Below are positions 17,804 through 46,443 of a stretch of DNA of 64,000 nucleotides, one piece after another. This DNA is from Leptospira biflexa. Lineage in GTDB: Bacteria > Spirochaetota > Leptospiria > Turneriellales > DYLW01. The stretch is taken from positions 924 to 64,923 of the forward strand of contig DYOA01000012.1 of assembly GCA_020720785.1 (NCBI GenBank), read 5' to 3'. The translations under genes were made by a program, and so were the position numbers. Under the pieces are notes generated by a model that made no database searches, was not told the DNA's origin, and saw nothing but the letters and a program-made list of their open reading frames with translations. How positions within the stretch are numbered: position 1 is the first letter of the stretch; each line of letters starts with the position of its first letter.

Positions 17804-18682
17804 TTGTTTCTCAAAGAAAAAATCTCTCGGGATATCCAGGGTGCCCTCAAGCGATGTGGAGAAAATCCGGGTATTCGGAGACAGTTCGAATACGATCCGG
17901 AGGAAGAAAAAATTCAGGATGGTTTTACAGAAGATCCGGTGGGGGACGCAAGTGCTTCCATACCCGGCTTGCCCTGCCTCATAAGAAAATATCCGGATCG
18001 GTTGCTGGTGTACCTGCATGATGACTGCCCGGTTTCCTGTCGTTTTTGTTTCCGCCGTCATATTAACATTATTCCCGCTCGCCAATGTGCTTTTACGGAT
18101 ATCCGGGCATATCTGGATGCCAATCCGGAGATACGGGAGGTGATTTTTTCCGGAGGGGATCCCTTTTATTTACCACTGGCTGATTGGTCATCCCTGGCGG
18201 AAGAATATTACCGGCTGGAAAAATTGCAGACCATTCGCTTCCATACCCGGACACTGACTACCTTTACCCGGGCATATACGGAAGATCTGTATTCTCTTTT
18301 CCGGAAGTGGAATGCATACGGGAAAGAAACGGTGATGGTTTTCCATATTAACCACCCCTGCGAAATCCGGGAGCCAATGGCGGAAATCCTGCATCGGCTG
18401 CGGGAGTCCGGTATCCTTCTCAAACACCAAATGGTGTTGCTCCGTGGGGTTAACGATGATGTTAAAATTTTACAGAAATTATTCCGGAAGACAGAGGAGA
18501 TGGGCATCTCTCCCTATTATATCCACCATTTGGATGCCGTGAAAGGAGCCCACCATTTTCATGTGCCCACGGATGAGGGCATATCTCTCATCCAGGATTT
18601 TTTCCGGAGCTATCCTTTTCTCCTGGCCAAACCCAGATATGTTCAGGATTCTCCGTCCGGAAAGCACAATCTGCTATGGTGA
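17804..18682 (+). CDS. KamA/EpmB-family radical SAM protein (lysine 2,3-aminomutase-like)
   Basis: RKYPDRLL, CPVSCRFCFRR, SGGDP, RFHTR, HINHP, VLLRGVND and PYYIHHLD motifs. Start uncertain: in-frame TTG at 17804 just after the upstream stop; the ORF track gives 17723. Confidence 0.85.
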   Translation: MFLKEKISRDIQGALKRCGENPGIRRQFEYDPEEEKIQDGFTEDPVGDASASIPGLPCLIRKYPDRLLVYLHDDCPVSCRFCFRRHINIIPARQCAFTDIRAYLDANPEIREVIFSGGDPFYLPLADWSSLAEEYYRLEKLQTIRFHTRTLTTFTRAYTEDLYSLFRKWNAYGKETVMVFHINHPCEIREPMAEILHRLRESGILLKHQMVLLRGVNDDVKILQKLFRKTEEMGISPYYIHHLDAVKGAHHFHVPTDEGISLIQDFFRSYPFLLAKPRYVQDSPSGKHNLLW

Positions 18683-20278
18683 TTTTTGATTCGCCAGAAA
18701 CGTTTTATAACTGTCAAATTCCGGATTTTTTAAAAAGGTCTCTATCTTTGCCTTTTCGAATTCTTTATCCGGAGAAGCGTTTATCCTGGCCCGGATTATT
18801 TTTTCCAGATACGGAAAATCCCCCACTTTAGCTGCGGATAACGACGCCTTTTGGAAGGAAGGAAATCCCATGCTGTCCTGGTAGATTTCCATCACTTTCC
18901 GGTGGTTATCCAAGCGGAAGTGTATCTGGATCATATCATCCGGTTTCAGCACTTTTTCGGATCCCGGATAAGTTTGTGCAATTTTCAGAACCATATCGTA
19001 TTTTTTCTGACGGTAGAAGAAATTGATGGGAAACCGTAAATCCCATGCCAGCCATTCATTCAAAAAAACGGATAAGCCGGTGGACTGGGTTGCATCCGGA
19101 TTTTCCCCGAACAGGGATTTCTGATAGAGCAGAGACGCTTTTTTTTCATGGGTTTTTCTTACCTCTGCTTTCTGTTCCTTCAACATCTGATGGTGTGCCA
19201 TTTTTGCTTCCAGAAACTGGATGGCAATTATCTCCTCCGGTGGTAGATTTTCCTTTTGGGGCAGGGTTAATTGTTTGCAAAGCGGAGGTATTTCCAGTGG
19301 CTCCTTGGAGTGAAGAGCCTGGGACACCGCAGAAAGACAGTATGTGACCGTCGCAATACGCGTTTTTTCCTCCGAATTCACCCGGTATCCCTCCAGTTCC
19401 ATGGCAGCGTGAGCATGAATTTTAGCACTCTGGATATTTCCCATACCATAATAAACCTGTGATATATTCAGGTGGGAGTAATAACGCAGTTGTTTCTGAT
19501 CCTTGGGGACATTATTGATTACGTCCCGCAGATATTCCAGAGCCTGAGGATAGTGATTTCTCCGCTTTTCAATAATCCCCAGTTTGTAATTGGTTTTATA
19601 AGATTCCCCTTGCTGGTGAATTTTGAGATAAATCTTATACGCGGATTCCCAATCTTCCAGTTTCTCATATAAAAATGCAATTCGCCAGTAATACGGAAAA
19701 TAGGATGAATTCAACCGGATGGCACTCTGGTAATTCCGGATGATGTCCGCCACTTCGGGCTTGTATTTCTGGTAATCCACCCCATCGGTAGCGGATAAAC
19801 GTTCATCCTCTTCCTTTGCTTTTTTGAGATATTCTCTGGATTTCAGGGTTTCCGGGGTAATGGATGCATTGGCTGAATCAATGATGTTTCTGACCGTGGA
19901 GTTATTGATCCCGTTTTTCTGCATCAGATACGCATATTCCAGGGCTTTTTCTGCGTTGCCGGCGTTTTTATAATACAGGACAATTTTCCATAACGCGGCC
20001 ACTTTATAGTCTCTCTTCAGCGGGCGGGCAACGGCTCTTTCAAAATAGGGGATGGAGGCCGCATATTCCCGTTTGGCATCCTTTATGCTACCCATGAAAA
20101 ACCAGGGCTCACCCTGGGTTTCCCCTGCGTCAATAGCCTTCTGGAAGTAGGAGAATGCAATGTCGTAATTTCCATGGGAGAAAGCATCTTCCCCCATGTA
20201 AGTGTATTTATGTTTTCCGTAGATACAGCCCGTTGCCACCAAAAAAAAGATGACTATACCACGCATATAATAATTCAT
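18674..20278 (-). CDS. Tetratricopeptide-repeat protein, possible lipoprotein
   Basis: Signal-like N-terminus ending ..VATGC and repeated TPR-like helices (A..YFQKAI, A..YFERAV, ALEYLRDV). ATG 20278 forms an ATGA overlap with the tolC-family stop. Confidence 0.75.
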   Translation of the reverse strand: MNYYMRGIVIFFLVATGCIYGKHKYTYMGEDAFSHGNYDIAFSYFQKAIDAGETQGEPWFFMGSIKDAKREYAASIPYFERAVARPLKRDYKVAALWKIVLYYKNAGNAEKALEYAYLMQKNGINNSTVRNIIDSANASITPETLKSREYLKKAKEEDERLSATDGVDYQKYKPEVADIIRNYQSAIRLNSSYFPYYWRIAFLYEKLEDWESAYKIYLKIHQQGESYKTNYKLGIIEKRRNHYPQALEYLRDVINNVPKDQKQLRYYSHLNISQVYYGMGNIQSAKIHAHAAMELEGYRVNSEEKTRIATVTYCLSAVSQALHSKEPLEIPPLCKQLTLPQKENLPPEEIIAIQFLEAKMAHHQMLKEQKAEVRKTHEKKASLLYQKSLFGENPDATQSTGLSVFLNEWLAWDLRFPINFFYRQKKYDMVLKIAQTYPGSEKVLKPDDMIQIHFRLDNHRKVMEIYQDSMGFPSFQKASLSAAKVGDFPYLEKIIRARINASPDKEFEKAKIETFLKNPEFDSYKTFLANQKSP

Positions 20279-21648
20279 TCCATTTCCTTCCATTTTGAGA
20301 GTGAAACCCTGTCTCCAATCACCGCCATCAGCTCGGCAATGGCCAGCAGATACTGGTATTCGGATTCATAGATATTCTTTTCGGACAGATAGTATGCGGC
20401 CATAGCTTCCATGGTATCTTCCCCGGAACCCGTACCGGTGGAAAAGGCAGACCATTCTGCCACAAACCATTTCCCCGCTTCCTTGTATTTATTTTGTTCA
20501 TTCTTCCATTTGTGGTAGGAATAATCCACATTGTTGTATGCCATCAGTATTTTCAGCGGAATTCCTGTGTCCGCTTCCCGTTTCTGGCTCTGGGCTTTCA
20601 GGTAAAGGGAATGGGCTTTCTTTTGCTCAGACTGTTGTTTCCCCCAGTCAAATTCCCACCGGGCACCCAGCACTACGGCCCCGGTCAATTCATTATATGG
20701 ATCTCGTGCATAAATGCTCTGCTGGTCTTCCCGGGCTTTTGTATGAGAATAGGAGCCCATCCCGCCAATGAATAAAACAGGGAGGGATTTTTTCTTCTCC
20801 AGCTCCAGGGAGTGTTTATAGGCTACTACTCCGGAAATGGCTGCCCGGTACTGGGGATTTGAGCCAAAACGGGAAAGCCAGCTTTCCAGATTTTCCAGCT
20901 CCATTTCCACATCCGGGAATTCCAGGTCAGCCACGTCATAACTGCGTCTTTCCCCCAGATAATGTCCAATGGCCCAGAGTGCGTTTGTCTTCTGGATGGA
21001 GACCTGGTAGGCCATGGTATCCAATTCATGGGAATACATCATTATCTTTGCCAGATCCTTTTTCTTTACATTTGTATCTCCGGCTTGGTAGCGTTCATTG
21101 GCGGAAGCAACGGCTTCTTCCATTTTCTTCCGGGCATCCGCCAGCAGGATTTCCAGTTTTTTCAGCAGGATCACGGAGAGATAGAGTTTTTTATACTCGT
21201 AGATATTTTCATTGATTGTTCCTTCTGTAAGACTCTTGCCTGCTTCCAGGCCGTGTTCGGCGGCATACCGGGCTTCCGTGGTGGCCCCAAAGGAGAACAC
21301 CGGCATGACCACAGTGATTTGTCCATAATACGCCGGACCCCAGCGGGAATAATCATTGCTGGAGGAAAGTGCATTGCCTTCCGTTTCATAAGTTGGTGCG
21401 ACAAAGGTGGTAATTCCCACACTGGGAACCCAGAGATTTTTTACTCTGTCCATATTGGCCTCAAAGCTGATGAGGGAAGCCTTTTCCCGGGCGATGGCGG
21501 CATTTGAGGAAAGGAGCTTTTTTAATCCTTCCTCAAAGGTGATAACCGTGGCGGGCTGGCCTTCCAGGAAACCCCCCGATAATAACAGTATGCAGATCGT
21601 GAGGATAAAATTACTTTTTCTTTTTAATCGTGCCATTTTCCAGATCAT
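20275..21648 (-). CDS. TolC-family outer-membrane efflux protein
   Basis: Signal peptide, two OEP-like repeats (WVPSVGI / SLPVLFIG beta segments followed by long helices), C-terminal 'YQYLLAIAELMAVIG'. Confidence 0.8.
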   Translation of the reverse strand: MIWKMARLKRKSNFILTICILLLSGGFLEGQPATVITFEEGLKKLLSSNAAIAREKASLISFEANMDRVKNLWVPSVGITTFVAPTYETEGNALSSSNDYSRWGPAYYGQITVVMPVFSFGATTEARYAAEHGLEAGKSLTEGTINENIYEYKKLYLSVILLKKLEILLADARKKMEEAVASANERYQAGDTNVKKKDLAKIMMYSHELDTMAYQVSIQKTNALWAIGHYLGERRSYDVADLEFPDVEMELENLESWLSRFGSNPQYRAAISGVVAYKHSLELEKKKSLPVLFIGGMGSYSHTKAREDQQSIYARDPYNELTGAVVLGARWEFDWGKQQSEQKKAHSLYLKAQSQKREADTGIPLKILMAYNNVDYSYHKWKNEQNKYKEAGKWFVAEWSAFSTGTGSGEDTMEAMAAYYLSEKNIYESEYQYLLAIAELMAVIGDRVSLSKWKEME

Positions 21649-22279
21649 TCACTTTCTCTGTTAATTTTTGGATAAGATAGTCCATCCCTTTTTTGGGATT
21701 GGAAATGGTTTGGTAAAAATAATTCCGGTAATCCAGGAGAGTGGATGCCCCATCAATCCGGACGTCATACAGATAAAACCGGTCATTCTTTGGGTAGAAA
21801 TAAAGATCCACTTTGTATTCGATTTTTTTGGAGATCATGCTTCCATGAACGATGGTGGCATCGATATTAAAGATTTTGTCTTTTCCATTGGATTCACGGT
21901 GGAGTTTTAACGGGTTTTTTTTCTCCAGGGTTGTCTTTTCCGGCAAATTGATTTTCAGGATGCTTTCTGTCATCAGCCGGCGATATAAATCACGAAAGCG
22001 TTCCATCTGCTTTTTGCTTTGCGGGGTTTTCTCGCTGTAATATTTCCCCAGAGCCATCCTGGAAATAACATCAAATTCCAGCATGTCCATCACGGAATTT
22101 CTTGCTTTCTCCATAACGACTTTTTTATTTTCTTCCGATGGATCTTCCGCCAGGGATTTCCGGTATTCTTCCAGTTCCGTTATTTTTCCCTGGGCAAATT
22201 CCAGCACTCCGGATTTTTCCTGGGAGTATATATTCAACGCAATTAGCACAGGCAGAAGCAGCAGAAATAATTTTTTCAT
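21611..22279 (-). CDS. mlaC: MlaC/Ttg2D-family periplasmic lipid-binding protein
   Basis: Signal peptide, 'FDVISRMALGKYY', 'RFRDLY' and 'YDVRIDGASTLLDYRNYF..I...GMDYLIQKL' match the MlaC pattern. Confidence 0.8.
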   Translation of the reverse strand: MKKLFLLLLPVLIALNIYSQEKSGVLEFAQGKITELEEYRKSLAEDPSEENKKVVMEKARNSVMDMLEFDVISRMALGKYYSEKTPQSKKQMERFRDLYRRLMTESILKINLPEKTTLEKKNPLKLHRESNGKDKIFNIDATIVHGSMISKKIEYKVDLYFYPKNDRFYLYDVRIDGASTLLDYRNYFYQTISNPKKGMDYLIQKLTEKVNDLENGTIKKKK

Positions 22280-34076: not shown

Positions 34077-34901
34077 ATGGAAAAACAAGAGACGGTTAAA
34101 TACGATACCCCCTGGCGGAGAATGGCAACAGCCATTTACCAGTCGGCCCGCGATGGAAGGACTTATGGTACTTATGAAATGGATGTGACCAGTCTTTTGG
34201 GTTATATCCAGAAACAGAAAAAAAAGGGGATACATCTAACCGTAACCCAGATTATGGCATCCGCTCTGGGGAGAGCTCTGAGTGTGGATGTCCCCGAATT
34301 GAATGCATACGTTAAGAGAGGCAGGGTTGTGGGAAGAGAATCCGTGGATATTTTTATTGCGATATCCATTCCTGGCTCCAGGGATATGACAGGATTAGCG
34401 TTCCGCAACATTGACCGGAAAAGCCTTGCGGACATTTCAGAAGAGATGACCGTCCGGGTGGAAAAATCCCGGAAAAAACAGGAAGAAGGAGTGGCAAAGA
34501 ATAAAAACGTCCTGGCATCCATTCCCTGGCCATTCCGGAACTGGGTTTTTAATCTGATCCGCTTTATCAGCGTGGATTTATCCATTCCCATTGGGTTTAT
34601 GAAAATAAACGCCGGTTCTTTTGGGAGTGCCATGATCACCAACATCGGGGTGTTTGGCCTTCAGTTTGGTTTTGCAGCTTTGTTGCCTGCTTCCAATCTG
34701 CCCATTGTACTGGCGATGGGTAAGGCCGAGAAAAAACCTGTTGTAAGAAATAATAAAATTGTGATTCGGGATATCATTCCTCTGGGAGGGGTTTTTGATC
34801 ATCGCATTGTGGATGGAGCACAGGGAGGAAAACTGGCCTCTGCTCTCCAGAAATATGTGGAGAATCCTGCCTTATTGGAAATCCCCATAACCGACAATTA
34901 A
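34077..34901 (+). CDS. Stand-alone 2-oxoacid dehydrogenase E2-like acyltransferase catalytic domain
   Basis: WRRMATA, PELNAYV, GSAMITNIG and FDHRIVDG (catalytic His). No lipoyl or E3-binding domain. Confidence 0.87.
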   Translation: MEKQETVKYDTPWRRMATAIYQSARDGRTYGTYEMDVTSLLGYIQKQKKKGIHLTVTQIMASALGRALSVDVPELNAYVKRGRVVGRESVDIFIAISIPGSRDMTGLAFRNIDRKSLADISEEMTVRVEKSRKKQEEGVAKNKNVLASIPWPFRNWVFNLIRFISVDLSIPIGFMKINAGSFGSAMITNIGVFGLQFGFAALLPASNLPIVLAMGKAEKKPVVRNNKIVIRDIIPLGGVFDHRIVDGAQGGKLASALQKYVENPALLEIPITDN

Positions 34902-34924
34902 TTATATCTGCGTAAGGAGGAGTT

Positions 34925-35142
34925 ATGGAAAACCGGCCATGGATTAAGTTTTATGAAAAAGTCCCGGCTACTCTGAACTATCCGGACGTATCTATGGGTT
35001 GTTTATTGGTGTACCGGATGACTACTGAATGAACAAGCTCAAAGCGTTTGTGGTTCCATTAGAGAAAGGATTGGATACGGAAAGGCTGAGACAGCAACTA
35101 TTGGAAAATCAAGAAAAGGAAAAAGAAAAAAATAATAAATAA
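34925..35142 (+). pseudogene. Internally deleted long-chain acyl-CoA ligase (AMP-binding) remnant
   Basis: AAGGAGG RBS, then MENRPWIKFYEKVPATLNYPDVSM (ligase N-terminus). Immediately after, another frame reads IGVPDDY*MNKLKAFVVP (AMP-binding C-terminal domain motif). Confidence 0.7.
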
Positions 35143-37616
35143 TGGTAAAAGAGCTCTTTGAAAGGCTTTTCTTCGCACTGGGAAAAAAGGTCTACTCCCA
35201 TCCGCTGGCTTTTCTCTCGATAACCGTGCTTCTGACCATTGTTGCCATCCCCGGTCTTATGAAGCTGAAGCTGGATTCCAACATGGCGGCTCTTCTCCCC
35301 GACGAAAACCCGGTGGTAAAAAATCTGGAATATGTATCCGATGTATATGGAGGGCTGGGCAATCTGGTTCTTGTTGTGCGCGGAAAAGATCCGGAGAAAA
35401 TTATTTCTTTCCTGGAGAAAACATCAGAAAGAATGAAAAACCATAAGGAAGTAAGCTATGTTGAGTTCAAAAAGCCCACCTCCTTTTTTGAAAACCATTT
35501 TCTTCTGTTCATGGAAACAGATGACCTGCAAAAAATATTTTACCGAATCCATCATAAGTTCGAATATGAGAGAAAGAAAAACAATCCCCTGCTTCTGGAT
35601 ATGATGGAAGAAAATGATCCTGGACTTTATTTCCAGGATATTATTAAAAAATATGAAAATAAATATGCTAACGGGAGATCCTTGATACAGAAGAAAAAAG
35701 ATGATCAATTTTTTAATTATTATTACAAAAAAGAAGGGGAAACATATACCTTTGCTGCATTTATCAAGCCAGCAAACTCAGCGTTGAGCGTTAAATATTC
35801 CCGATTTTTTCTCAATGAAATGGAAAATATCAGCCAGAGTTGCCGAAAGAACCTGCTCACCAATGAAATGGTGGAGTTTACCGGAAGATATAAAAAAAGT
35901 CCGGACGATTTTGCTTTATTGGGGAAAGATTTCACCCGGGTAACTATTGTATCACTGGGGGGGATCCTTGCCATTTTACTATTCTATTTCCGGCGAATAC
36001 GATCTTTGGTTCTCCTTATAATTCCTTTGCTGATGGGCATTGTCTGGACTCTGGGTTTTGTGGGATATATTTTTGGAACCTTAAATCTGATCACCACCTT
36101 TCTGTCCTCGATTCTGATGGGATTGGGTATCGATTATGGTATCCATCTGATTCTGCGGTATCGTGAGGAAAGGATCAAACATGAGCATAATAAAGAGCCT
36201 TTTCTGATTATGTTTTCCCAGACCGGGTCCGCGTCCTTTTCTTCAGCCACGACGACTGCTTTTGGTTTCCTGGCCATTTCTTTTACAGAGCTGAAGGCGT
36301 TCCGGGAATTCGGGATTATTGCTTCTGCCGGGATTATCTTAATATTAATTGCCATGATGTTTTTTATATCTTCTGCTCTGGTTATCTTTGAGCGGAAAAA
36401 TATCCAGCTAAGCTTCAACAAAAGAAGGTTACCGGAATTCCTGTGGAAATATCCCAGGGTGTTGCTGGGGGTTTTTGCTTTTTTTACTGTACTTCTGTTT
36501 TTTCCCTTACAAAATATCTGGTTTGATTATGATTTTTCCAAAATCCAGGGAAAACACCTGCGATCCCATAAAGTGGAAAAAGAGATTAATGCCATGGTGG
36601 GACGGACCCAGAATCCCACGGTGATCATTCCCGCCAGCATGGAAGAAGAAAAGATCATATTGAAAAAACTCAATGAATTGATAAAAAACAACAAAGACAA
36701 TAAAAAATTTCAAATACATCAGGCTGTGGGTATATCCACTTTTATTCCCGGAGATCAGGAGAAAAAAATATACTGGATTCGCGGGATACACAATCTGCTT
36801 TTGAAAAACGGTAAATATAAGAAAACATTGAGTCAGAAAAATGCCCGGATGTGGGATAAACTGTATCAAAATACATCCATATCCAGTATCAGCGAAGAAA
36901 ATCTTCCGCAATCCATTTCCAGAGCGTTTCGAGGGGTTGGTGACCAAAAAGAAAAGAAAGTAATTCTGGTTTTTCCCAAATCCACCATGGTATTAGGCCT
37001 GGATTGGATTGACTATGCAGATGCGATCCATTCCATAAAAGTGAAAGAAAAACCAATACTTGCCGCATCCGATGAAATGCTCTTTGCGGAAATCCTGAAA
37101 ATGATCCAAAGTGAGGGACCATTTATTCTGACAATAGCATTTCTGTCTGTAGTGGTGGTGGTTTTTTTGGGATTTATGAATATTCCGCAGGCATTACTTG
37201 TATTGAGTCCTCTGGTCGTTTCCTTTTACTGGCTTCTGGGATTCCTGGGATTCATTGATATGCCTGTGGATTTTTTTAATGTGATCATGTTTCCCATCAT
37301 TGTGGGGATTGGAATAGACAGTTCGATTCATATATACCATCGTTATAAGGAGGAAGGAGACGTGCTTAAAGCAGTTTCCAATACGGGGGTGGCTGTCATT
37401 CTGTCCACCTTTACATCCATGATGGGCTTTGGGGCATTAATGGCTGCCAGTAATGCGGCCATTTTCAGTATGGGTAGTGTTGCTCTTTGGGGTCTCTTCT
37501 TTTCTCTTGTGACCTCACTCCTGGGTCTGCCTGCACTGTTATTAATTGTTCACACAAAGAAAAAAACGGGAAAAAGACATGATAAAAGTGTTTTCAGCCA
37601 AAGCGATAGCCAATAA
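35142..37616 (+). CDS. MMPL-family (RND superfamily, HpnN-like) lipid transporter
   Basis: Two repeats of TM + periplasmic domain + 5 TM, with MGLGIDYGIH and GIGIDSSIH motifs. Confidence 0.9.
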   Translation: MVKELFERLFFALGKKVYSHPLAFLSITVLLTIVAIPGLMKLKLDSNMAALLPDENPVVKNLEYVSDVYGGLGNLVLVVRGKDPEKIISFLEKTSERMKNHKEVSYVEFKKPTSFFENHFLLFMETDDLQKIFYRIHHKFEYERKKNNPLLLDMMEENDPGLYFQDIIKKYENKYANGRSLIQKKKDDQFFNYYYKKEGETYTFAAFIKPANSALSVKYSRFFLNEMENISQSCRKNLLTNEMVEFTGRYKKSPDDFALLGKDFTRVTIVSLGGILAILLFYFRRIRSLVLLIIPLLMGIVWTLGFVGYIFGTLNLITTFLSSILMGLGIDYGIHLILRYREERIKHEHNKEPFLIMFSQTGSASFSSATTTAFGFLAISFTELKAFREFGIIASAGIILILIAMMFFISSALVIFERKNIQLSFNKRRLPEFLWKYPRVLLGVFAFFTVLLFFPLQNIWFDYDFSKIQGKHLRSHKVEKEINAMVGRTQNPTVIIPASMEEEKIILKKLNELIKNNKDNKKFQIHQAVGISTFIPGDQEKKIYWIRGIHNLLLKNGKYKKTLSQKNARMWDKLYQNTSISSISEENLPQSISRAFRGVGDQKEKKVILVFPKSTMVLGLDWIDYADAIHSIKVKEKPILAASDEMLFAEILKMIQSEGPFILTIAFLSVVVVVFLGFMNIPQALLVLSPLVVSFYWLLGFLGFIDMPVDFFNVIMFPIIVGIGIDSSIHIYHRYKEEGDVLKAVSNTGVAVILSTFTSMMGFGALMAASNAAIFSMGSVALWGLFFSLVTSLLGLPALLLIVHTKKKTGKRHDKSVFSQSDSQ

Positions 37617-37633: not shown

Positions 37634-40600
37634 ATGACGAGAATCATAGAATTTTTCATCAAACGTAGCCTGTTTGGAAATTTTATTACCGTGACCGTGC
37701 TGATTGGGGGAATGTGGATTGCCTTTGGCATGCAGAGGGAAGCCCTGCCCATCGTTGATTTTGATATTGTTCTCATCAATACGGCGTATCCGGGAGCATC
37801 CCCAAAAGAAGTGGAAAAAATAATCACCACCCCCATTGAGCGGGAATTGAAAAGCGTGGACCAGATCAAGGACATGATATCCACTTCCCTGTATGCCCGG
37901 AGCACCGTAGTGCTGAAACTGGAGCCGGATATTGAAGAAAAACTCAAGATCATCCAGGACATCAAAGATGCGGTGGATATTGCCAAAATTGATTTTCCGG
38001 AGGATGTCATTGACCCTGTGGTCGGTGAAATCACCACCAAAAAAACTCCTGTTATCCAGATTCTGCTGAGTAAAAAAAGCTACACCGGAGATGCGGACAA
38101 AGACCCGCGCCAAAGAGAGTTGCGGCAGTATGCGGACAGACTGAAAGACAGCCTGGAATTAATTCCGGAAGTTGCATCCATCGCCACCCGGGGTTACAGG
38201 GACAGGGAATTCCAGGTGGAGGTCTCTCCCGATAAGATGCTGGCATATAATATTTCCGTGGATGATATCATTTCCGCCCTTCAGTCAAGAAATCTGAATT
38301 TACCTGGTGGTACCATAATTGAGGGAGAAAAGGAATATTCCATCCGAACCGTGAAGGAATTTGAAAATTTCCAGGAGATGGAAAACTTATTTATCCGGGC
38401 AAATGACCTGGGTAATTTTATAAAATTAAAAGATATTGCTACTGTTACAGATACTTATGAAAAAGAGTCCATTATTGAAAAAAACAAGGGGAAGGATGCC
38501 ATTGTCCTGACTGTTTTGAAAAAAGAAAAAGCGGACGCTATCCGCCTTGTGGACAGTATTAATAAGAATATTGAGCAGTTTAAAACCAGCACTCCGTCGG
38601 ACATGGACATTGAAACAGCCAATGATTTATCATACTACATAAAAAGACGCCTGAATGTTCTCCAGGGCAATATTCTCTTGGGTATTGTGCTCATCATTAT
38701 TTCCCTGTATTTCTTTCTGGGTTGGCGGATTTCCCTGATGGTGGCCATTGGTTTACCATTTTCGTTTGCATTAAGTTTTTTCTTCCTGTCCTATTTTGAT
38801 ATTACTATCAATATGATTAGTATGTTTGGATTGATTGTGGTATCCGGTATGCTGGTGGATGATGCTATTGTTATAAGCGAAAATATATACCGGCATCTGG
38901 AACAGGGGGAGACTCCCAGGAATGCCGCTATTAAAGGAACCAAAGAAATGGTTTTACCGGTTTTTGGTTCCGTATCCACCACCATGGTGGCCTTTGCCCC
39001 GCTTTTGTTTATGGGTGGAATTTTTGGCAAATTTGTCTGGGCCATTCCGGCGGTGGTGATTATCTCCCTCCTCAGTTCCCTCTTCGAAAGCTTTTTTATC
39101 CTCCCCTCGCATATCGCTGACATCACGGCCAACGCGAAGAAAAAGCAACTTTTAAAAAATGAAAAATCACTGGAATTCCGTTTTTTTCGCTGGATGCAGG
39201 GGATATACAAGCCATCCCTTGAATGGGCATTGAAAAGAAGATATCTGATGATGTTTATTGTTTTCTTTTTGTTTTTTATATCCATTGTTCTTGTGGGAAG
39301 AACCGGGTTTATTCTGTTTCCCAAAGAAGGAGTGGAAATTCTGGCTATGAAGTTTGAAGGACCCAAAGGAATTTCCCTGGAAGAAATGGAATCCAGAATG
39401 CGTCCCGCCCAGGATTTGATTGGAAAAATGTCATCCAAAGAGCTGGAAAATTTCCAATCCCGTATTGGTATTCACCAGGAGAATGAGGCGGATCCCTTCA
39501 TGAAACGGGGGGAAAATTATGGCCAGATTGTATTGTACCTGACGCCGGAAGAAGACAGGGAAAGGGTGGTGGAGGAAATCATATCGTATTTCCAGGCCTA
39601 TATCAACCCCAATATGCAGGCTGCCAACATGGATGGTATTCCCGGAGCCGAATATGACCTCTATAAAATTTTAGCTCGGAATCATATCCAGATTTTGTCT
39701 CCGTTGCGTGGTACAGTGGAGACCATTTCCTTGAAAACGGATTATCTGATTGGTGGTGGATTCATTTCCAATAAAACCATGCTTCTCTATGATGCATCCA
39801 ATCACGCGTATCTGTATGATTTTCCACAAAAGCGAATTATCCAACAGAAAAAAATCAAAATCCAGAAATATGATTTTATGAAAAAGGTGATCCCCATCTC
39901 CGGTCATCAGTATTCATTTCTGATCACGGAGAAAAACAGGATCTATAAAATCCATAACCAGAATCTGGAAATGAATCTTCTGCATGTGATGGATAATGAA
40001 ATCACCCAGGCAGAGTATTTTGCGGAAAGAAAGTCTTTGTATCTGACCACTTCCAGAGGGGCATTCCATGTTTTCAGCGTCAGCGAGGACGGAGAGCTGG
40101 AGCAGAAGAAGATGTTGGAAAAAGGACCATCCAAAAAGCTGGTGGATGAGCGGGTGACTTTCGATTACAGCCCCACAAAATCCGCAATGCTTCCCCGCTT
40201 GGAGGGAGGTTTTTTTACCAAGGACAAGCAGAATTTTCTGCTGGCTGGATTCGATGGTGTGGTGTACCAGTATTCATGTAAAAAGGAATCCCTGGAGAAG
40301 GCCTTTTTTATCCAGTCTGTTCCGCTTTATTGGGCAATGGAAGATCCGCAAAACCAGGATTTTCTGTGGATTTCTGCCATGGACCACCTTTTTTATTACA
40401 ATAAGAATACACAGTCCATAGTCAAAGACTATCCTGTATGGGGTTATGTACAGAAAATGGTTAATCTGAACGGCAAAATGATATTCTATGGAACCAATAA
40501 CCTGAAGGTGGAGGCCGGGAGCGGAGGGTTTGCCCGGGTGATTCAGGCAGAAAAAAGGGTATTTGAAAAAATAGAATTTAAAAAAACCGGACAAGGTGGA

Positions 40601-41761
40601 CCTCCTGTGGGTTCTCCGGTACAGATCGAAGTTTCCGGAGAGGAATTTGATACCTTGATTGAAATTTCAGCAATGATCCAAAAAAACCTGAATACCCTGG
40701 AAGGTGTTTATGATGTCCGGGATAACTGGGAGGAAGGTAAAGAGGAGTTCCGCCTGGAAGTAAATGAGGAAAGGGCGGCTATGGCTGGCGTCTCTGTTTT
40801 TCAGATTGCATCCACCCTCCAGACGGCTTTTGAGGGTAGAATTGCCACAACAGTAAAAAAGACAAAAGAAGAAATTGACATCCGCGTCCTTTTTCCGGAA
40901 AACCTGAGAAAGCGTCTTTCCTCGCTGAATAAAGTGACCGTAAGAAATAAAATTGGCAATCTGGTTCCCATAACAGAGCTGGCCACTTTTAAAAAGTACC
41001 CCGGGGTCTCCATGATATCCCATGTGGATGGAAAGAGAACCTTTTATATTCAGGCCAATATTGACGAGCTGAAAACCAGTTCCCTCAAAGCAAATAACCA
41101 GATTATGTCCATCATCAAACCCATTATGCAGAAAAAATACCCGGATTACCAGATCAAAGCATCCGGGGAGCTTGCTGATACCCAGGAATCCATGGAAGAC
41201 TTGGGCTTTGCCGGAGCGGTGGCTGTGGGCGGAATCCTTGCCATATTAATCCTCCTCTTTGGAAACCTGCGGCATCCCCGGGTGATCATGATGGCCATTC
41301 CCCTTGGATTTATTGGCGTTTCCGTTGCTTTTTATCTGCATAAAATAACCTATTATCCCAATCTAGTGTTCAGTTTTCTGGCATCTATGGGGATTGTGGG
41401 TCTGGCCGGGGTGGTTGTGAACGATTCCATTGTTCTGGTGGATTTTATCAACCAGCTCCGGAAATCCGGGGTTCCCAAGAATGAGGCCATTATTACGTCC
41501 GGGATTTACCGTCTACGGGCAGTGATGCTGACCACCATCACGACCGTTTTTGGTCTAATCCCCACTGCGTATGGAATTGGAGGAAGCGATCCCATGCTCA
41601 AGCCCATGGCCCTGGCCATGGCATGGGGGTTAGCATTTGCTACATTGATTACGTTGATATTTATTCCGGTTTACTACGCTATCTGGGAAGACCGGGGATT
41701 TGTTTTCCATCACGAGATATCCAGATCTCTGAAAAAACTGGAGGACAAAGACGATGAATAA
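37634..41761 (+). CDS. AcrB-like RND permease with a ~320-aa insertion in the periplasmic porter domain
   Basis: YPGASPKEVE, NLPGG, GMLVDDAIVISEN, GGPPVG, VVNDSIVLVD and RLRAVMLTT motifs. 1375 aa versus about 1050 for typical members. Confidence 0.92.
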   Translation: MTRIIEFFIKRSLFGNFITVTVLIGGMWIAFGMQREALPIVDFDIVLINTAYPGASPKEVEKIITTPIERELKSVDQIKDMISTSLYARSTVVLKLEPDIEEKLKIIQDIKDAVDIAKIDFPEDVIDPVVGEITTKKTPVIQILLSKKSYTGDADKDPRQRELRQYADRLKDSLELIPEVASIATRGYRDREFQVEVSPDKMLAYNISVDDIISALQSRNLNLPGGTIIEGEKEYSIRTVKEFENFQEMENLFIRANDLGNFIKLKDIATVTDTYEKESIIEKNKGKDAIVLTVLKKEKADAIRLVDSINKNIEQFKTSTPSDMDIETANDLSYYIKRRLNVLQGNILLGIVLIIISLYFFLGWRISLMVAIGLPFSFALSFFFLSYFDITINMISMFGLIVVSGMLVDDAIVISENIYRHLEQGETPRNAAIKGTKEMVLPVFGSVSTTMVAFAPLLFMGGIFGKFVWAIPAVVIISLLSSLFESFFILPSHIADITANAKKKQLLKNEKSLEFRFFRWMQGIYKPSLEWALKRRYLMMFIVFFLFFISIVLVGRTGFILFPKEGVEILAMKFEGPKGISLEEMESRMRPAQDLIGKMSSKELENFQSRIGIHQENEADPFMKRGENYGQIVLYLTPEEDRERVVEEIISYFQAYINPNMQAANMDGIPGAEYDLYKILARNHIQILSPLRGTVETISLKTDYLIGGGFISNKTMLLYDASNHAYLYDFPQKRIIQQKKIKIQKYDFMKKVIPISGHQYSFLITEKNRIYKIHNQNLEMNLLHVMDNEITQAEYFAERKSLYLTTSRGAFHVFSVSEDGELEQKKMLEKGPSKKLVDERVTFDYSPTKSAMLPRLEGGFFTKDKQNFLLAGFDGVVYQYSCKKESLEKAFFIQSVPLYWAMEDPQNQDFLWISAMDHLFYYNKNTQSIVKDYPVWGYVQKMVNLNGKMIFYGTNNLKVEAGSGGFARVIQAEKRVFEKIEFKKTGQGGPPVGSPVQIEVSGEEFDTLIEISAMIQKNLNTLEGVYDVRDNWEEGKEEFRLEVNEERAAMAGVSVFQIASTLQTAFEGRIATTVKKTKEEIDIRVLFPENLRKRLSSLNKVTVRNKIGNLVPITELATFKKYPGVSMISHVDGKRTFYIQANIDELKTSSLKANNQIMSIIKPIMQKKYPDYQIKASGELADTQESMEDLGFAGAVAVGGILAILILLFGNLRHPRVIMMAIPLGFIGVSVAFYLHKITYYPNLVFSFLASMGIVGLAGVVVNDSIVLVDFINQLRKSGVPKNEAIITSGIYRLRAVMLTTITTVFGLIPTAYGIGGSDPMLKPMALAMAWGLAFATLITLIFIPVYYAIWEDRGFVFHHEISRSLKKLEDKDDE

Positions 41762-42521
41762 GAAAAAAGAGAAATTGATTCCGCCGGCTGTGAATTCCTC
41801 TCAGACAACAGAGCAATCCGGAGAGATTGACTTTGATGAGTTGGTGGCAAAAGGAGTGGACCTGGGGCGATTGCTGGATAAGGAACACCTGGCATCCTAT
41901 AATTACGATGAACTAAAGGAGATTGTCCAGTATGTGGATCCCATTGATAATCCAAAGATCTACCAGCTTGCCATCGAAACAATTCGGGAACGGGTTCCCC
42001 GCCGTATTCGCATCGCAACCATCGGCCATAGAATCTGGAGTTTTTATTATGAGCGGTATCTGGCCCGCATCTTTTATGTGGGATGGTTTCTGGTATCCTA
42101 CCTGATTTTGAAACCTTCCCTGCCCGGGGTTTGGATTCTGGGGAATAAGGAATATGACAAGTGGTTTATGGTATTCCTGGGAGGATTGTTCTTGCTCTTT
42201 AATCTGTGGCATGTCCTCATGGCATTTCTGGAAAGCAATAGAAATATATTTTTCCACAAAACAACATACTTCCGCCGGAATCTGGGGATTTATGTGGTGG
42301 ACAGGAATGGGAAGCGGATTGGAATAATCAAAAGCATACTCCGCAGTATTTTCAAAACCATATTAATAGGACCCATCATGATTCTTTCCATGGAATATGA
42401 TACAAAAGGACGCGGGATTCATGATAAACTTCTGGGAACTTATGTCCTGCGAATTACATCCAGGGACGATATTGATTCCATGAGCGGTGAGATTGCCGCG
42501 TTTATCTCGGAAAATTATTAA
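41754..42521 (+). CDS. RDD-family membrane protein
   Basis: 'RIATIGHRIWSF', two TMs, 'LGIYVVDRNGKRIG...ILR' and 'RGIHDKLLGTYV'. Overlaps the RND gene by 8 nt. Confidence 0.8.
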   Translation: MNKKKEKLIPPAVNSSQTTEQSGEIDFDELVAKGVDLGRLLDKEHLASYNYDELKEIVQYVDPIDNPKIYQLAIETIRERVPRRIRIATIGHRIWSFYYERYLARIFYVGWFLVSYLILKPSLPGVWILGNKEYDKWFMVFLGGLFLLFNLWHVLMAFLESNRNIFFHKTTYFRRNLGIYVVDRNGKRIGIIKSILRSIFKTILIGPIMILSMEYDTKGRGIHDKLLGTYVLRITSRDDIDSMSGEIAAFISENY

Positions 42522-42539: not shown

Positions 42540-43838
42540 ATGTTGGATAAAAAAATAGAAACCATTGAAATAGACGAATTACGACAAATGCAGTTGCAAC
42601 GGTTGCGTGCGACGGCAAGCCGGGCTTATGAAACAGTTCCCTTCTATAAGAAAAGCTTTGACCAGCATGGGGTGCATCCGGATATGTTGCACAGTCTGGA
42701 TGATCTTAGGAAATTTCCGTTCCTGCTAAAAAATGACATGCGGGAGGCGTATCCCTTTGGTCTATTCTCTGAGCCCATGGAAAACATTGTGCGTCTGCAT
42801 GCTTCATCCGGCACCACCGGTCATCCCACTGTGGTGGGATATACCAAAAACGATATTGATATTTGGGCGGAAGTCATGGCCAGAACCCTCAGTGCGGAAG
42901 GTGGCAATGAAAAAGATATTATTCAGGTGGCGTATGGTTATGGTCTTTTTACGGGAGGATTGGGTGCCCATTATGGGGCTGAACGTGCCGGAATGACCGT
43001 TGTTCCCACCAGCTCCGGAAATACAAAAAGGCAGTTAATGCTCATAAAAGATTTCAACGTGACTCTGCTGGCCTGTACCCCTTCCTATGCTTTGAATATG
43101 GTGGAGATCGCGGAGGAAATGGGGATCAACCTAAAAGAGCTGCCGCTGAGGGCGGGCTTTTTTGGTGCGGAACCCTGGTCGGATTCCATCCGGAAGGACA
43201 TTGAGGAAAGAATGGGCATTCTGGCTCTGGATATCTACGGCCTTTCCGAAATAATCGGGCCCGGTGTCAGTTTTGAATGTCCATCCAAAAACGGAATGCA
43301 CATCAATGAGGATCATTTTTATCCGGAAATTATTAACCCTGAGACCGGGGAAGTACTGCCGGACGGAGAGACCGGAGAACTGGTGCTTACCACCATTACC
43401 AAGGAAGCCTTTCCTGCATTCCGCTACCGCACCCGTGACATCACTCGCCTGAACAGGGAAAAATGCTCCTGTGGCAGAACTCTGGTTCGGATGGATAAAG
43501 TCACCGGCAGAACGGATGATATGCTCATCATACGGGGCGTTAATGTATTCCCCAGCCAGATTGAATCCGTGATTATGGAAATGGAAGAGGTGGAACCGCA
43601 CTACCAGATTTTAGTGGACAGAGACGGGGCTCTGGATATTCTGGAAGTCCAGGTGGAGGTGAGCCAGAAATTCTTTTCCGATGAAATCCGCAAACTGGAT
43701 GCCATTAAAGCAAAAATCGGCAAGGCAATTCTGGAGAATCTTTCCGTTTCCGCAAAAATCACCCTGGTGGAGCCCCGTACCATTGAAAGATCCATGGGGA
43801 AAGCCGTGCGGGTCATCGATAAAAGAACAAAAGCATAG
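42540..43838 (+). CDS. paaK: Phenylacetate-CoA ligase
   Basis: [32 protein letters not shown] and [20 protein letters not shown] motifs. Confidence 0.95.
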
Positions 43839-43846
43839 AGGCCAAC

Positions 43847-44281
43847 ATGATAATAAAACAGGTTTCCATTTTTATTGAAAATAAGGCAGGCCGACTCTCC
43901 GAAGTCAGCCGTATACTGGGTGATGCCGGGGTGAATATCCGCACATTATCTCTGGCGGATTCCTCTGATTATGGGGTTTTGCGGCTTATTGTGGATGATC
44001 CTCAGAAAGCGGTGGATGTCCTGAACGCCAGGGGAATTACTTCCAGCATGACCGATATGATTGCCCTGGAAGTGATGGACCAGCCGGGCGGACTGGCGGA
44101 TATTCTGGACAGGATAGCCTCTCTGGGATTGAATGTGGCCTATATGTACGCCTTTGTGGAAAAAGTGGACGGTAAGGCCGTGGTGGTTTTCCGCTTTGAG
44201 GATATGGAGAAAGCCAGCCAAAAAATATCCCAGGACAGTAAACTGACTTTCCTGATTGGGGAAAAAATACAAATACCATAA
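43847..44281 (+). CDS. Double ACT-domain protein (paaK/ior-associated)
   Basis: QVSIFIENKAGRL...GVNIRTLSLAD...GVLRLIV and D.PGGLA..L...NV.YMYAF motifs. Confidence 0.92.
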   Translation: MIIKQVSIFIENKAGRLSEVSRILGDAGVNIRTLSLADSSDYGVLRLIVDDPQKAVDVLNARGITSSMTDMIALEVMDQPGGLADILDRIASLGLNVAYMYAFVEKVDGKAVVVFRFEDMEKASQKISQDSKLTFLIGEKIQIP

Positions 44282-44291
44282 CGGAGCATTC

Positions 44292-45848: not shown

Positions 45849-45858
45849 AAGGTAGATT

Positions 45859-46443
45859 ATGCAGGCAATGAATTTTTTAATGGCAGGGGTGGGGGGTCAG
45901 GGTGTGATCCGCTTTTCCCAGATTCTGGGCGATGTGCTTTTCCATCTGGATTATGATGTAAAAAAAGCGGAAGTGCATGGGATGAGCCAGAGAGGAGGTG
46001 CTGTTAACTCACATCTCAAAGCGGCACCCCGGGTTTATTCCCCCATCATTGAAAATGGTACGGCAGATTTTCTCATTTCCATGGAGCTGCTGGAAACCTA
46101 CCGGAACCGGGATATCATATCGGAAAAAGGGATGGTGATTTCGTCCACGTATACTCTGGAAACAGCCCGGATGGCTGCAGGACTGGATGACTATCCATCG
46201 GATCTAACGGAAAAATTAAAAGAAATATTCCAGGACAGGATTATTCTGATTCCCACTCTGGAGATAGCCAAAGAGCTGGGAAATCTGCGCCTGCATAATA
46301 CCATTTTACTGGGAAAACTTGCCGCAAACATGGCTATTCCCAAGGATAAATGGCTGGCTTCCATAAAGAATATTTTTCCGGAAAAAGTGCATGAGTTAAA
46401 TGAAAAAGCATTTTCTGCCGGTTATCAATACCAGCCGGAATAA
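45859..46443 (+). CDS. iorB: Indolepyruvate:ferredoxin oxidoreductase beta subunit
   Basis: GVGGQG, AEVHGMSQRGGAV, N.ILLG and NEKAF motifs. Confidence 0.93.
   Translation: MQAMNFLMAGVGGQGVIRFSQILGDVLFHLDYDVKKAEVHGMSQRGGAVNSHLKAAPRVYSPIIENGTADFLISMELLETYRNRDIISEKGMVISSTYTLETARMAAGLDDYPSDLTEKLKEIFQDRIILIPTLEIAKELGNLRLHNTILLGKLAANMAIPKDKWLASIKNIFPEKVHELNEKAFSAGYQYQPE

Follow-up and report, generated by a model that had tools for sequence, protein, structure and literature searches.

To our knowledge, no characterised RND efflux system of Gram-negative bacteria works without a separate adaptor in the periplasm, which contacts the porter subdomains PC1 and PN2, switches the pump on and links it to the outer-membrane channel. 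In the mycobacterial HAE2 transporters MmpL4 and MmpL5, a coiled-coil stalk is inserted into a porter subdomain, and a small membrane accessory, MmpS4 or MmpS5, is encoded alongside. The helices of the porter subdomains have been described as external and PC1 as peripheral, and PC1 is normally one continuous fold, insertions being confined to PN2 and PC2 (PMC8277102). PC1 was shown to bind the MP domain of AcrA protomer I, and the PAP1 sites are located mostly on the PC1 surface (PMC5404916, PMC6975555). BesABC of Borrelia burgdorferi is a spirochaetal RND system in which the adaptor BesA has no alpha-hairpin (PMC8277102).

In the stretch of DNA analysed here (64,000 nucleotides assigned to Leptospira biflexa, referred to as the window), a gene was identified which codes for an RND transporter with a predicted beta-propeller in PC1 (Table 1). 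The protein resembles the canonical HAE1 pumps AcrB, MexB, MexK, MdtB/C and TriC, to which it has its closest matches in sequence and fold, in the 12 TM helices, the two large periplasmic loops with PN1/PN2/DN and PC1/PC2/DC, and the invariant Asp-Asp of TM4 and Arg of TM11; TetR and OEP genes are likewise found in the operons of most of its propeller-containing relatives. It differs from these pumps by the propeller of about 321 aa within PC1, which is continuous in the described pumps (PMC8277102), and its clade has no adjacent adaptor gene, but a dedicated RDD partner. BesABC originates from the same phylum and also departs from the canonical bridge between adaptor hairpin and outer channel (PMC8277102). 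However, BesABC retains the adaptor BesA and an RND protein without an inserted domain, whereas here no adaptor gene is present at the loci, and it is the pump that bears an additional domain, on the subdomain to which adaptors bind.

SecDF, another member of the RND superfamily, contains an extra substrate-handling domain, the P1 head, within a periplasmic loop, but fold and insertion site are different, and SecDF is a monomeric accessory of protein export and not a trimeric efflux pump. MmpL4 and MmpL5 share with the present transporter the extra periplasmic module in a porter subdomain and the dedicated small membrane accessory, whereas they belong to another RND family, contain a coiled coil instead of a propeller, are accompanied by MmpS and not by an RDD protein, and act in the mycobacterial envelope. 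TolB and BamB are periplasmic propellers that serve as docking platforms in trans-envelope machines; in contrast to the seven-bladed, WD40-like and covalently inserted propeller described here, they are separate proteins with six or eight blades of the PD40 or PQQ-like type. For the RDD partner, AcrZ and YajC are comparable by analogy only, as small membrane proteins on the TM domain of an RND pump, while the RDD family (PF06271) is unrelated to them and its members are larger.

The propeller and its insertion site

The protein encoded by the gene is a proton-driven inner-membrane RND transporter of the AcrB/MexK/MdtB kind. In a Pfam search with the 1375-aa protein, ACR_tran (PF00873) was matched with 630.7 bits (cut-off 28; E 5e-189) in two stretches that jointly cover the profile, with a break at profile position 644-653; the first stretch comprises residues 4-657. 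The closest relatives in the PDB are MexK, MdtB and TriC, and the PDB matches to RND proteins resume at query residue 987, which corresponds to MexK residue 663. The Asp-Asp pair of TM4 (D409/D410) and R1293/R1295 of TM11 showed no variation across 28 aligned relatives, which fits an active pump; from the motif positions (VDDAIV and RLR), we take these residues to be the counterparts of AcrB D407/D408/R971. By its sequence, the protein is related to the HAE1 subfamilies, while membership by the curated NCBIfam thresholds is excluded, with scores for NF033617, NF000282 and TIGR00915 of 529 vs 1250, 390 vs 1250 and 330 vs 940.

Table 1. Features of the propeller-containing RND locus. Positions refer to the window, residues (aa) to the RND protein; strand positions and residues marked "model" follow the numbering of the insert model.
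Feature	Position	Strand	Basis and remarks
2-oxoacid-dehydrogenase-type (CAT-like) acyltransferase	34077..34901	+	PF00198 1.5e-30
HpnN/BstA-like MMPL (HAE3-type) RND gene	35142..37616	+	PF03176 5e-31; TIGR03480 HpnN 8.5e-83, below cut-off
RND transporter gene, 1375 aa, with inserted propeller	37634..41761	+	single unbroken ORF; ACR_tran match
N-terminal RND part, aa 1-657: TM1-TM7, PN1/PN2/DN, PC1 beta1-alpha1-beta2-beta3-alpha2	37634..39604	+	ACR_tran profile positions 1-644
Predicted inserted seven-bladed WD40-type beta-propeller, aa 658-978 (about 321 in-frame residues)	39605..40567	+	AF2, Foldseek, family profile
Blade 1, aa 665-699	39626..39730	+	DSSP strands 8-11, 19-22, 27-32, 36-42
Blade 2, aa 705-740, conserved D-[YF]-L-x-G-G-G motif	39746..39853	+	strands 48-53, 58-63, 67-72, 77-83; model G50 invariant; strand A conservation 2.66
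Blade 3, aa 749-785	39878..39988	+	strands 92-97, 103-108, 112-117, 123-128
Blade 4, aa 790-828	40001..40117	+	strands 133-139, 144-149, 154-159, 165-171; model G152 invariant
Extra beta-hairpin at the junction of blades 4 and 5, aa 833-844	40130..40165	+	strands 176-180, 183-187; F843 (model F186) kept in at least 90% of sequences
Blade 5, aa 856-892, WD-like F-D-G-x-[IV]-x-x-Y-[DS] motif	40199..40309	+	strands 199-204, 210-215, 219-224, 229-235; model G218 invariant
Blade 6, aa 898-934, conserved P-[ILV]-x-W and L-W-x-S motifs	40325..40435	+	strands 241-246, 253-258, 261-266, 271-277; model W243 is the position of highest conservation
Blade 7, aa 939-971	40448..40546	+	strands 282-288, 291-296, 301-304, 310-314
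C-terminal RND part: last PC1 strand, GGPPVG loop, PC2, DC, TM8-TM12	40568..41761	+	model and alignment to AcrB 661-682
RDD-family membrane protein gene, 255 aa	41754..42521	+	PF06271 2.5e-05, 25.0 bits vs cut-off 24.1
Sole OEP gene of the window	20275..21648	-	non-orthologous to the operon OEPs of relatives

The initial annotation had described an in-frame insert of about 320 aa in the porter domain, containing short hairpin repeats like those of a beta-propeller. Both parts of this description hold: the ACR_tran match breaks off at residue 657 and the model places the insert in PC1, while the AF2 and Foldseek analyses proposed at that time have now been carried out and predict a folded seven-bladed propeller of the WD40 type. 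The limits of 39605-40560 given there equal aa 658-976; by structure the insert comprises aa 658-978 (39605-40567), with the propeller strands spanning aa 665-971 in the predicted model. Its removal leaves about 1055 aa as calculated before, and the five hairpin motifs quoted are all present in the translation, where they form strands B and C of blades 2-6.

The AF2 model of the insert (pLDDT 90.7, pTM 0.87) is all-beta and consists of 30 strands, with 28 core strands forming seven four-stranded blades, plus one extra hairpin. A Foldseek search against the PDB resulted in 1949 matches at E<=1e-3, of which the best 50 are all propellers; among those listed are WDR5, WDR61, G-beta and a 7-bladed designer protein. 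The TM-scores were 0.6-0.68 when normalised to the query and at most 0.72 when normalised to the target, to seven-bladed WD40 proteins. On the sequence level, a profile of the clade inserts matched PWP2 (3e-11) and WDR5 (3e-5) in the PDB, and also LST8 and Apaf-1. Propeller families of the WD40 type in Pfam were matched by 15 of 19 clade members with E-values down to 2e-9, while for P0122 and P0126 (full-length, cut-offs shown) most of these matches lie under the Pfam gathering scores. The insert is thus predicted with high confidence to be a complete seven-bladed WD40-type propeller, which would add a bacterial, periplasmic and domain-inserted use of this fold.

Invariant residues of the insert are few and mostly structural glycines, and blades 1 and 7 show the lowest conservation. 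With strand labels derived from the WD-like motifs, the loop conservation amounts to 1.86 for B-C and 1.29 for D-A, which form the conventional top face, vs 0.67 for A-B and 0.33 for C-D. The conservation of the B-C loops is in part structural.

According to the model of the C-terminal half (pLDDT 89.6, pTM 0.75), in which PC1 has the order b-a-b-b-a-[propeller]-b, the propeller is predicted to be inserted between helix alpha2 and strand beta4 of PC1. The helix of aa 646-657, which corresponds approximately to the AcrB PC1 helix ~642-657, directly precedes the insert, and the last PC1 strand EKIEFKK (aa 979-985, model strand 450-456) follows it, before the first PC2 strand. In the alignment, the flanks of the insert match AcrB residues ~642-657 and 661-668; in AcrB, the latter strand lines the lower cleft. 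The end of the insert is located about ten residues ahead of the GGPPVG loop, the equivalent of the F-loop, which in AcrB forms part of the wall of the PC1/PC2 entry cleft. In the same model, pLDDT values of 80-90 were obtained for the junction blocks, which suggests that the predicted attachment of the propeller is fixed rather than floppy. The N- and C-termini of a propeller are normally adjacent, in the closing blade, and for this reason it can occupy a loop without upsetting the host fold. In insert-free relatives, 28-31 residues were found between the equivalent flanks. The position would show that the alpha2-beta4 loop of PC1 accepts large insertions, which would be useful for the engineering of tagged or nanobody-fused pumps.

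Distribution and maintenance of the insert

About 25 proteins from NCBI, ENA, Logan and JGI assemblies show the same architecture, with overall identities as low as 44%. The insert-bearing proteins and one RDD-fused relative without a propeller form a small clade in the Spirochaetota with a bootstrap support of 100/100 (outgroup root, 999 columns). The insert keeps its length and position among proteins with 51-62% identity in the core, its own sequence identity being only 17-27%. The dN/dS of the insert is 0.10, and its GC content (0.43) is the same as in the 5' part of the gene.

Mis-assembly, which had been named as a possible refutation of the architecture, or a foreign insertion is ruled out by the number of proteins from independent assemblies, the intact reading frame, the GC content, the dN/dS, the fold and the clade support. 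On the same grounds, it is very improbable that the insert is an artefact or junk of any kind, whether a chimeric assembly, a recently acquired mobile element or other foreign DNA, or a functionless sequence in neutral decay: it occurs at an identical site in proteins of independent origin, assembled with different programs, and has a confidently predicted fold. In favour of this explanation, the window's own copy is without a match to any Pfam family, and a word-index search with the insert only was empty; yet a copy with 88% identity exists, and the empty search represents a limit of candidate selection and not uniqueness. A match of the window's insert to a YcsE-related phosphatase (4e-4, 19.8 bits vs a cut-off of 220) is attributed to chance, and neither Pfam nor NCBIfam gave a meaningful match to this insert alone. 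The initial annotation had also pointed to a low number of CCGG sites: the count of one site in 39661-40500 is correct, but with four sites in 39605-40560 (4.2/kb vs 8.2/kb in the gene and 11.4/kb in the window) it was judged to be uninformative.

A close free-standing relative of the propeller was not found in an exhaustive HMMER search of 1.84 billion proteins. The search of a genome collection with the window's insert identified one close relative, labelled as a Leptospira biflexa MAG. In a metagenome scan, the insert was present in none of 80 RND loci, and the long match spans of L055 and L085 proved to be fragmented or tandem genes and not inserts. In the PDB comparison, no solved RND protein exceeds about 1070 aa and none contains an insertion at the equivalent site, and in the literature on RND transporters no description of a propeller inserted into PC1 was found. 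These results support the view, already expressed in the initial annotation, that the architecture has not been described previously, as far as could be checked.

Gene neighbourhood of the transporter

Immediately downstream of the RND gene, a gene for an RDD-family membrane protein was identified, a conserved partner which had been overlooked before. In the window, this gene begins within the last 8 nt of the RND gene, which include the stop codon. Orthologs are located immediately 3' of the RND gene in all ten distinct loci, and the stop codon is overlapped in eight of them; those of the other loci reach 17-24 bits to PF06271, but are clearly homologous by BLASTP (1e-16 to 1e-96). A search for further RDD homologs extended to close relatives only. 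The RND and RDD genes are predicted to be cotranscribed and are probably translationally coupled. In P0022, the RDD protein is fused to the C-terminus of the RND protein, right after TM12. The RDD partners consist of 233-274 aa with 2-3 TM helices, short loops and an N-terminal part of about 85 aa, which would be cytoplasmic since the fusion in P0022 follows TM12, which ends in the cytoplasm. The RDD protein was also considered as the missing adaptor; this was ruled out by the 2-3 TM helices and short loops, with no sizeable periplasmic domain.

Directly upstream of the RND gene, an OEP gene (PF02321, 1e-17 to 1e-27) was identified in six of ten distinct propeller loci with a spacing of -4 to +48 nt, often accompanied by a TetR gene; the L010 and L012 operons combine OEP, RND and RDD genes. 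One of the operon OEPs gave no match to PDB sequences at 1e-3, the OEP assignment being based on Pfam. In the sub-clade of the window, the conserved block upstream of the RND gene starts with the acyltransferase, followed by the HpnN-like MMPL gene, in place of (TetR)-OEP. The MMPL gene, which is a conserved neighbour only in this sub-clade, ends 17 nt upstream of the RND gene and is found at the same position in L001, L008 and L094, where the acyltransferase is also kept. The window operon contains no OEP gene, and the sole OEP gene of the window is 16 kb distant. MlaC, TolC and TPR proteins had been proposed as docking partners of the propeller; the MlaC-OEP-TPR cluster of the window lies at this distance on the other strand, and its OEP does not correspond to the operon OEP of the relatives.

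A gene for an HlyD/MFP adaptor was found in none of the ten distinct propeller loci, nor among the window ORFs of at least 220 aa. The adaptor search covered the loci, and the context sample comprised ten propeller loci and three propeller-less controls. An adaptor gene next to the RND gene, noted earlier as missing, is likewise lacking in the three propeller-less relatives sampled, so that its absence does not by itself account for the propeller and the loss of adaptor linkage may predate it. Adaptors may also be encoded at other sites of these genomes. An adjacent OEP gene was found in none of the three propeller-less relatives.

Possible roles of the propeller

The clade departs from the adaptor-dependent pattern by a 35-kDa domain on the adaptor-binding subdomain, by operons that mostly contain a channel without an adaptor, and by the conserved RDD partner. 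The OEP gene directly upstream and the absence of an adaptor gene from the related loci favour docking or adaptor replacement. As a tentative first choice, the propeller may be a docking platform encoded in cis, which replaces the pump-proximal role of the adaptor on PC1. Because both helices of a porter subdomain point outwards, it would project from PC1 on the external, peripheral side, next to the PC1/PC2 entry cleft; three propellers would surround the RND trimer. With its better conserved top face, the propeller would keep another part of the envelope system in contact with the pump, which in most relatives would be the TolC-like OEP encoded directly upstream. In the sub-clade of the window, this part may be the HpnN-like MMPL lipid exporter cotranscribed with the pump, or an OEP from another locus. 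As a membrane-embedded accessory subunit, the RDD protein would sit on the C-terminal TM bundle. The orientation of the propeller and its contacts with OEP, MMPL and RDD are inferred. A typical WD40 propeller is about 45 Å across and cannot stand in for the tube of adaptor alpha-hairpins, so that direct docking of pump and channel or another bridging factor would be needed. Against docking, the window locus has no adjacent OEP gene, the propeller evolves fast with few invariant residues, and the sample is small.

In a wider reading, which is doubtful at present, the clade would represent an adaptor-free trans-envelope RND machine in which propeller and RDD protein replace the adaptor and couple the pump directly to a TolC-like channel or, in the sub-clade of the window, to the lipid-exporting MMPL protein. 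If true, this would be a hitherto unrecognised mode of RND efflux assembly. The clade would also provide a concrete functional context for the RDD family, a family of unknown function. It offers a natural experiment on the role of the pump-proximal adaptor domain, and on the question if a connection of RND pumps to an outer channel is feasible in an adaptor-free system.

Substrate capture or gating is a close rival of the docking platform, though by itself still rather unlikely: at the mouth of the PC1/PC2 cleft (entry channel 2), the top face or the central pore of the propeller might bind the substrate, or a loaded periplasmic carrier of a lipid, lipopeptide or lipoprotein, and feed or filter entry to the access pocket. 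The location of the insert just before the F-loop equivalent and ahead of the strand matching AcrB 661-668 fits such a role, as does the better conservation of the top-face loops. The block of acyltransferase, (AMP-ligase) and HpnN-like MMPL in the sub-clade resembles a lipid-export module, whereas the TetR-OEP operons resemble ordinary xenobiotic efflux, for which a capture domain would be superfluous. The P1 head of SecDF and the membrane-proximal domain of CusB, which presents substrate, can be regarded as analogues. The MP domains of adaptors act in 'substrate selection and presentation' (PMC8277102). However, neither a ligand-binding motif nor conserved pocket residues were found in the insert, its invariant residues being mostly glycines, and its low identity among relatives better fits a coevolving protein interface or a loosely constrained scaffold.

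The propeller may also stand outside the transport path and anchor the pump to peptidoglycan, another envelope landmark or neighbouring pumps, or brace the trimer through contact with the next protomer. TolB on Pal and BamB on BamA are free-standing periplasmic docking scaffolds, the junctions are predicted to be rigid, and the varied upstream partners (OEP, MMPL, OMP-like) could mean a common envelope target. This role is improbable, as it leaves the OEP adjacency and the absence of adaptor genes unexplained; in addition, a Pfam scan of 19 members revealed no peptidoglycan-binding or TolB/PD40-type signature in the insert, with a weak TolB_like match in just two. Even less probable is an allosteric regulator or sensor, in which a ligand or protein on the propeller would shift PC1 and the PN2/PC1 module and thereby switch the transport cycle. 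PC1 moves within this module in the L-T-O cycle (PMC5404916, PMC8277102), and a rigidly attached domain of 35 kDa would couple mechanically to the movement, but the TetR regulators of the operons already provide transcriptional control.

Inserted domain of the RND protein

The RND gene is a single, uninterrupted ORF, to which Pfam ACR_tran was matched (5e-189) in two stretches, the first stopping at residue 657 (profile position 644). RND proteins in the PDB, for example MexK, rejoin it at query residue 987 (MexK residue 663), and about 320 in-frame residues lie between the two RND-matching parts. In insert-free relatives, the same flanks are 28-31 residues apart. The coordinates of the insert and the five hairpin motifs quoted in the initial annotation were all correct, as was a size of about 1055 aa after its removal; the CCGG count was numerically right but uninformative. 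The protein belongs to the RND/ACR_tran family and scores under the curated HAE1 subfamily cut-offs. It is apparently an active RND, judging from the TM4 Asp-Asp pair and the TM11 Arg, which are invariant among the aligned relatives. In the source databases, insert-bearing proteins carry no annotation beyond 'efflux RND transporter permease subunit'.

The window's insert alone matched no Pfam family. Nineteen insert sequences were aligned (A2) for profile, Pfam and structure tests. Compared with PDB sequences, the A2 profile matched WD40 propellers (PWP2, 3e-11; LST8; Apaf-1; WDR5, 3e-5), and WD40-type propeller families were matched by 15 of the 19 members searched individually, the window's copy falling below threshold. 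AlphaFold2 on A2 gave a confident all-beta model with 30 strands (pLDDT 90.7, pTM 0.87), which can be read as seven four-stranded blades, with an additional hairpin separating blade 4 from blade 5. Foldseek with this model yielded 1949 PDB matches at E<=1e-3; among the matches listed, 50 of 50 were beta-propellers, including the seven-bladed WD40 proteins WDR5, WDR61, G-beta and a seven-bladed designer protein, with TM values up to 0.72. Since the profile, Pfam, the AlphaFold2 model and Foldseek agree, the earlier description as beta-propeller-like is correct, and the AlphaFold and Foldseek check proposed there predicts a folded seven-bladed propeller. Of the 'WD40/YVTN-like' blades, the WD40 part holds and the YVTN part does not: the fold is WD40-type, not YVTN, PD40 or PQQ. 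The window also encodes a separate PD40 (TolB-type) propeller repeat protein, of a sequence type unrelated to the WD40-like insert.

Insertion site in PC1

To locate the site, AcrB 556-869 (PDB-checked) was aligned with the second periplasmic loop of the window protein and with insert-free relatives. Because the AcrB helix ended up behind the gap in the MAFFT alignment, the helix correspondence was set by inspection, with the insert-free relatives as bridge. The helix before the insert (RERVVEEIISYFQAYI) corresponds to the second helix of the porter subdomain PC1 (AcrB about 642-657), and the strand after the insert (EKIEFKK) to the last PC1 strand (AcrB 661-668); the GGPPVG that follows matches the F-loop region. 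A second AlphaFold2 model, built from 104 sequences for the C-terminal half of the protein (aa 530-1375; pLDDT 89.6, pTM 0.75), has PC1 as beta-alpha-beta-beta-alpha-[propeller]-beta. The blocks joining propeller and PC1 have a pLDDT of 80-90, which predicts a fixed attachment and not a tether. No hydrophobic segment was found within residues 555-1190, and therefore the whole second loop is periplasmic.

In the porter subdomains of RND proteins, the two helices face outwards; PC1 lies at the periphery and has a continuous fold, insertions being present only in the funnel subdomains PN2 and PC2, between beta2 and beta3 (PMC8277102). Against this background, the position after PC1 alpha2 is a new one for an insertion, and the insert should project outwards. 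In AcrAB-TolC, the PC1 surface is bound by the membrane-proximal (MP) domain of adaptor protomer I (PMC5404916; PMC6975555). As the initial annotation had supposed, no RND of this architecture appears to have been characterised: no description was found in the literature probed, and the solved RNDs matched are all at most 1069 aa, with nothing at this site.

In an alignment of 104 related RNDs (A3), 42 have 59-83 residues between the flanks at the site of window aa 657/979, owing to a short K/E-rich mini-insert (P0023, P0030, P0039 and 39 others, many from Leptospira); those without it have about 25-30 residues. These mini-inserts make the PC1 alpha2-beta4 loop a hot spot for insertions in this subfamily of spirochaetal RNDs.

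Relatives and gene neighbourhoods

A full-length search returned about 21 insert-bearing proteins of 1360-1513 aa, with a query coverage of 60-100% (at least 97% in 17); they come from MAGs of Spirochaetia, Leptospiraceae and Leptospirales. Ranked below them were hundreds of proteins of 1040-1130 aa that lack the insert, with Leptospira a frequent source. Identity to the window protein is 51-62% in the cores and only 17-27% in the inserts; both the position and the length of the insert are kept, the latter at 328-348 aa in 18 relatives. Three clade members (P0017, P0018, P0020) have 392-485 aa between the flanks, and the extra stretch of P0020 holds two strongly hydrophobic TM-like segments (residues 877-895 and 908-926; KD 2.5 and 2.9) inside the expected periplasmic propeller.

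When the insert profile was compared with 1.84 billion representatives, eleven clear members were identified (E 1e-106 to 3.3e-30, with E<=1e-30 for ten of them). Full-length proteins account for seven (1352-1507 aa, insert match at about 650-1060); the other four are shorter and fragment-like (229-748 aa), the two scanned (P0121, P0124) being RND fragments. Beyond these came generic multi-repeat WD40 proteins, and no close free-standing relative of the insert was found among these representatives. A word-indexed search with the 338-aa insert gave no match, though an 88%-identical copy sits inside P0001, so that this negative does not mean absence. None of the 80 RND loci returned by a metagenome scan carried the insert.

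In a tree built from 999 columns of the core, the proteins with the insert form a clade (100/100 bootstrap) together with P0022, a propeller-less RND that carries a C-terminally fused RDD domain (residues 1075-1219). P0022 is either sister to them or nested among them. Compared with a 92% ortholog, dN/dS is 0.10 for the insert and 0.05-0.07 for the core, and the insert has the GC content of the gene's 5' part. The propeller is one old gain, rare and under purifying selection; an artefact is excluded. Among species-representative genomes, a close copy was present only in L008 (DYLW01000001.1), a MAG titled 'Leptospira biflexa' and derived from a sulfidic-cave sample. This label is probably too specific, since the window has a GC content of about 45%, compared with nearer 39% for cultured L. 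biflexa.

Features of the window and of related loci
Feature	Location	Strand	Remarks
RND gene	window 37634..41761	+	1375 aa
Propeller insert	window 39605-40560	+	aa 658-976
Type B block	window 34077-37616	+	CAT-like (2-oxoacid_dh-type) acyltransferase, then HpnN/BstA-like MMPL
RDD gene	window 41754..42521	+	PF06271
Aromatic-acid metabolism block	window 42540-46443	+	directly 3' of RDD
MlaC-OEP-TPR cluster	window 18674-22279	-	MlaC-like 21611..22279; OEP/TolC-like 20275..21648; TPR 18674..20293
PD40 protein	window 59921-60802	-	293 aa; PF07676, 1.7e-21
Type B block of L094	1969-6982		AMP-binding (acyl-adenylating) gene between acyltransferase and MMPL
Protein upstream of RND in L005	6921-7955		344 aa; no Pfam match; takes position of OEP in other loci

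An RDD-family gene (233-274 aa) lies directly 3' of the RND gene in all ten distinct propeller loci. In eight of them it overlaps the RND stop codon, by 1-14 nt, and in two it lies no more than 43 nt away. RDD is an obligatory neighbour, and the family gains a concrete functional context as RND partner. Upstream, three arrangements occur. In type A (six of ten loci), (TetR)-OEP precedes the RND, the TolC-like OEP gene being -4 to +48 nt from its start. Type B (the window, L001/L008 and L094) has the CAT-like acyltransferase, an AMP-ligase in L094 only, and the MMPL protein, a block resembling a lipid synthesis and export module. In type C (L005), the upstream protein looks from its sequence like an outer-membrane beta-barrel: its N-terminus is hydrophobic and resembles a signal peptide, its composition is rich in glycine and aromatic residues, and it ends in ...SVTF. 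No HlyD-family adaptor was found in the ten loci or among window ORFs of at least 220 aa. The RND genes of the three relatives sampled that lack the propeller are orphans: apart from the RDD fusion in P0022, no adaptor, OEP or RDD gene adjoins them.

The MlaC-OEP-TPR cluster of the window may be an envelope lipid-trafficking set; its OEP and those encoded in operons of the propeller clade are not orthologs. The aromatic-acid metabolism block is common to the window and L001 and absent from other propeller loci. With domains taken from L001, it encodes a phenylacetate-CoA-ligase-like AMP-binding enzyme, an ACT-domain protein and a two-subunit indolepyruvate/2-oxoacid:ferredoxin oxidoreductase.

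Possible role of the propeller

The propeller is rigidly attached in the PC1 alpha2-beta4 loop and under selection, in loci with frequent OEP adjacency and no adaptor gene. It would jut outwards from PC1, on the external face and next to the PC1/PC2 cleft, and would cover or replace the usual seat of the adaptor MP domain. Its top-face loops may form the functional surface, since they are better conserved (B-C 1.86, D-A 1.29) than those of the bottom face (A-B 0.67, C-D 0.33); the strand labels rest on WD-like motifs, and the B-C conservation is partly structural. Our tentative preference, held at somewhat under even odds, is for a cis-encoded docking platform that takes over the adaptor's pump-proximal role and holds the second envelope component of the operon, RDD being a membrane accessory subunit. 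This reading has its weaknesses: the hairpin tube of an adaptor cannot be replaced by a propeller, adjacent adaptors are also absent from insert-free relatives, and the window's own operon has no OEP. The main rival, capture of a substrate or carrier at the PC1/PC2 cleft, draws some support from the lipid-export-like type B context and is somewhat less likely, while envelope anchoring or trimer bracing is improbable and allosteric control more improbable still.

Because no adaptor gene lies beside it, the propeller RND is not a canonical tripartite system. The nearest analogies are BesABC, a spirochaetal pump with an adaptor without hairpin, and MmpL4/5-MmpS4/5, which combines a periplasmic module inserted in the transporter with a small accessory protein. 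The P1 head of SecDF and the free-standing periplasmic propellers TolB and BamB are also among the nearest analogies.
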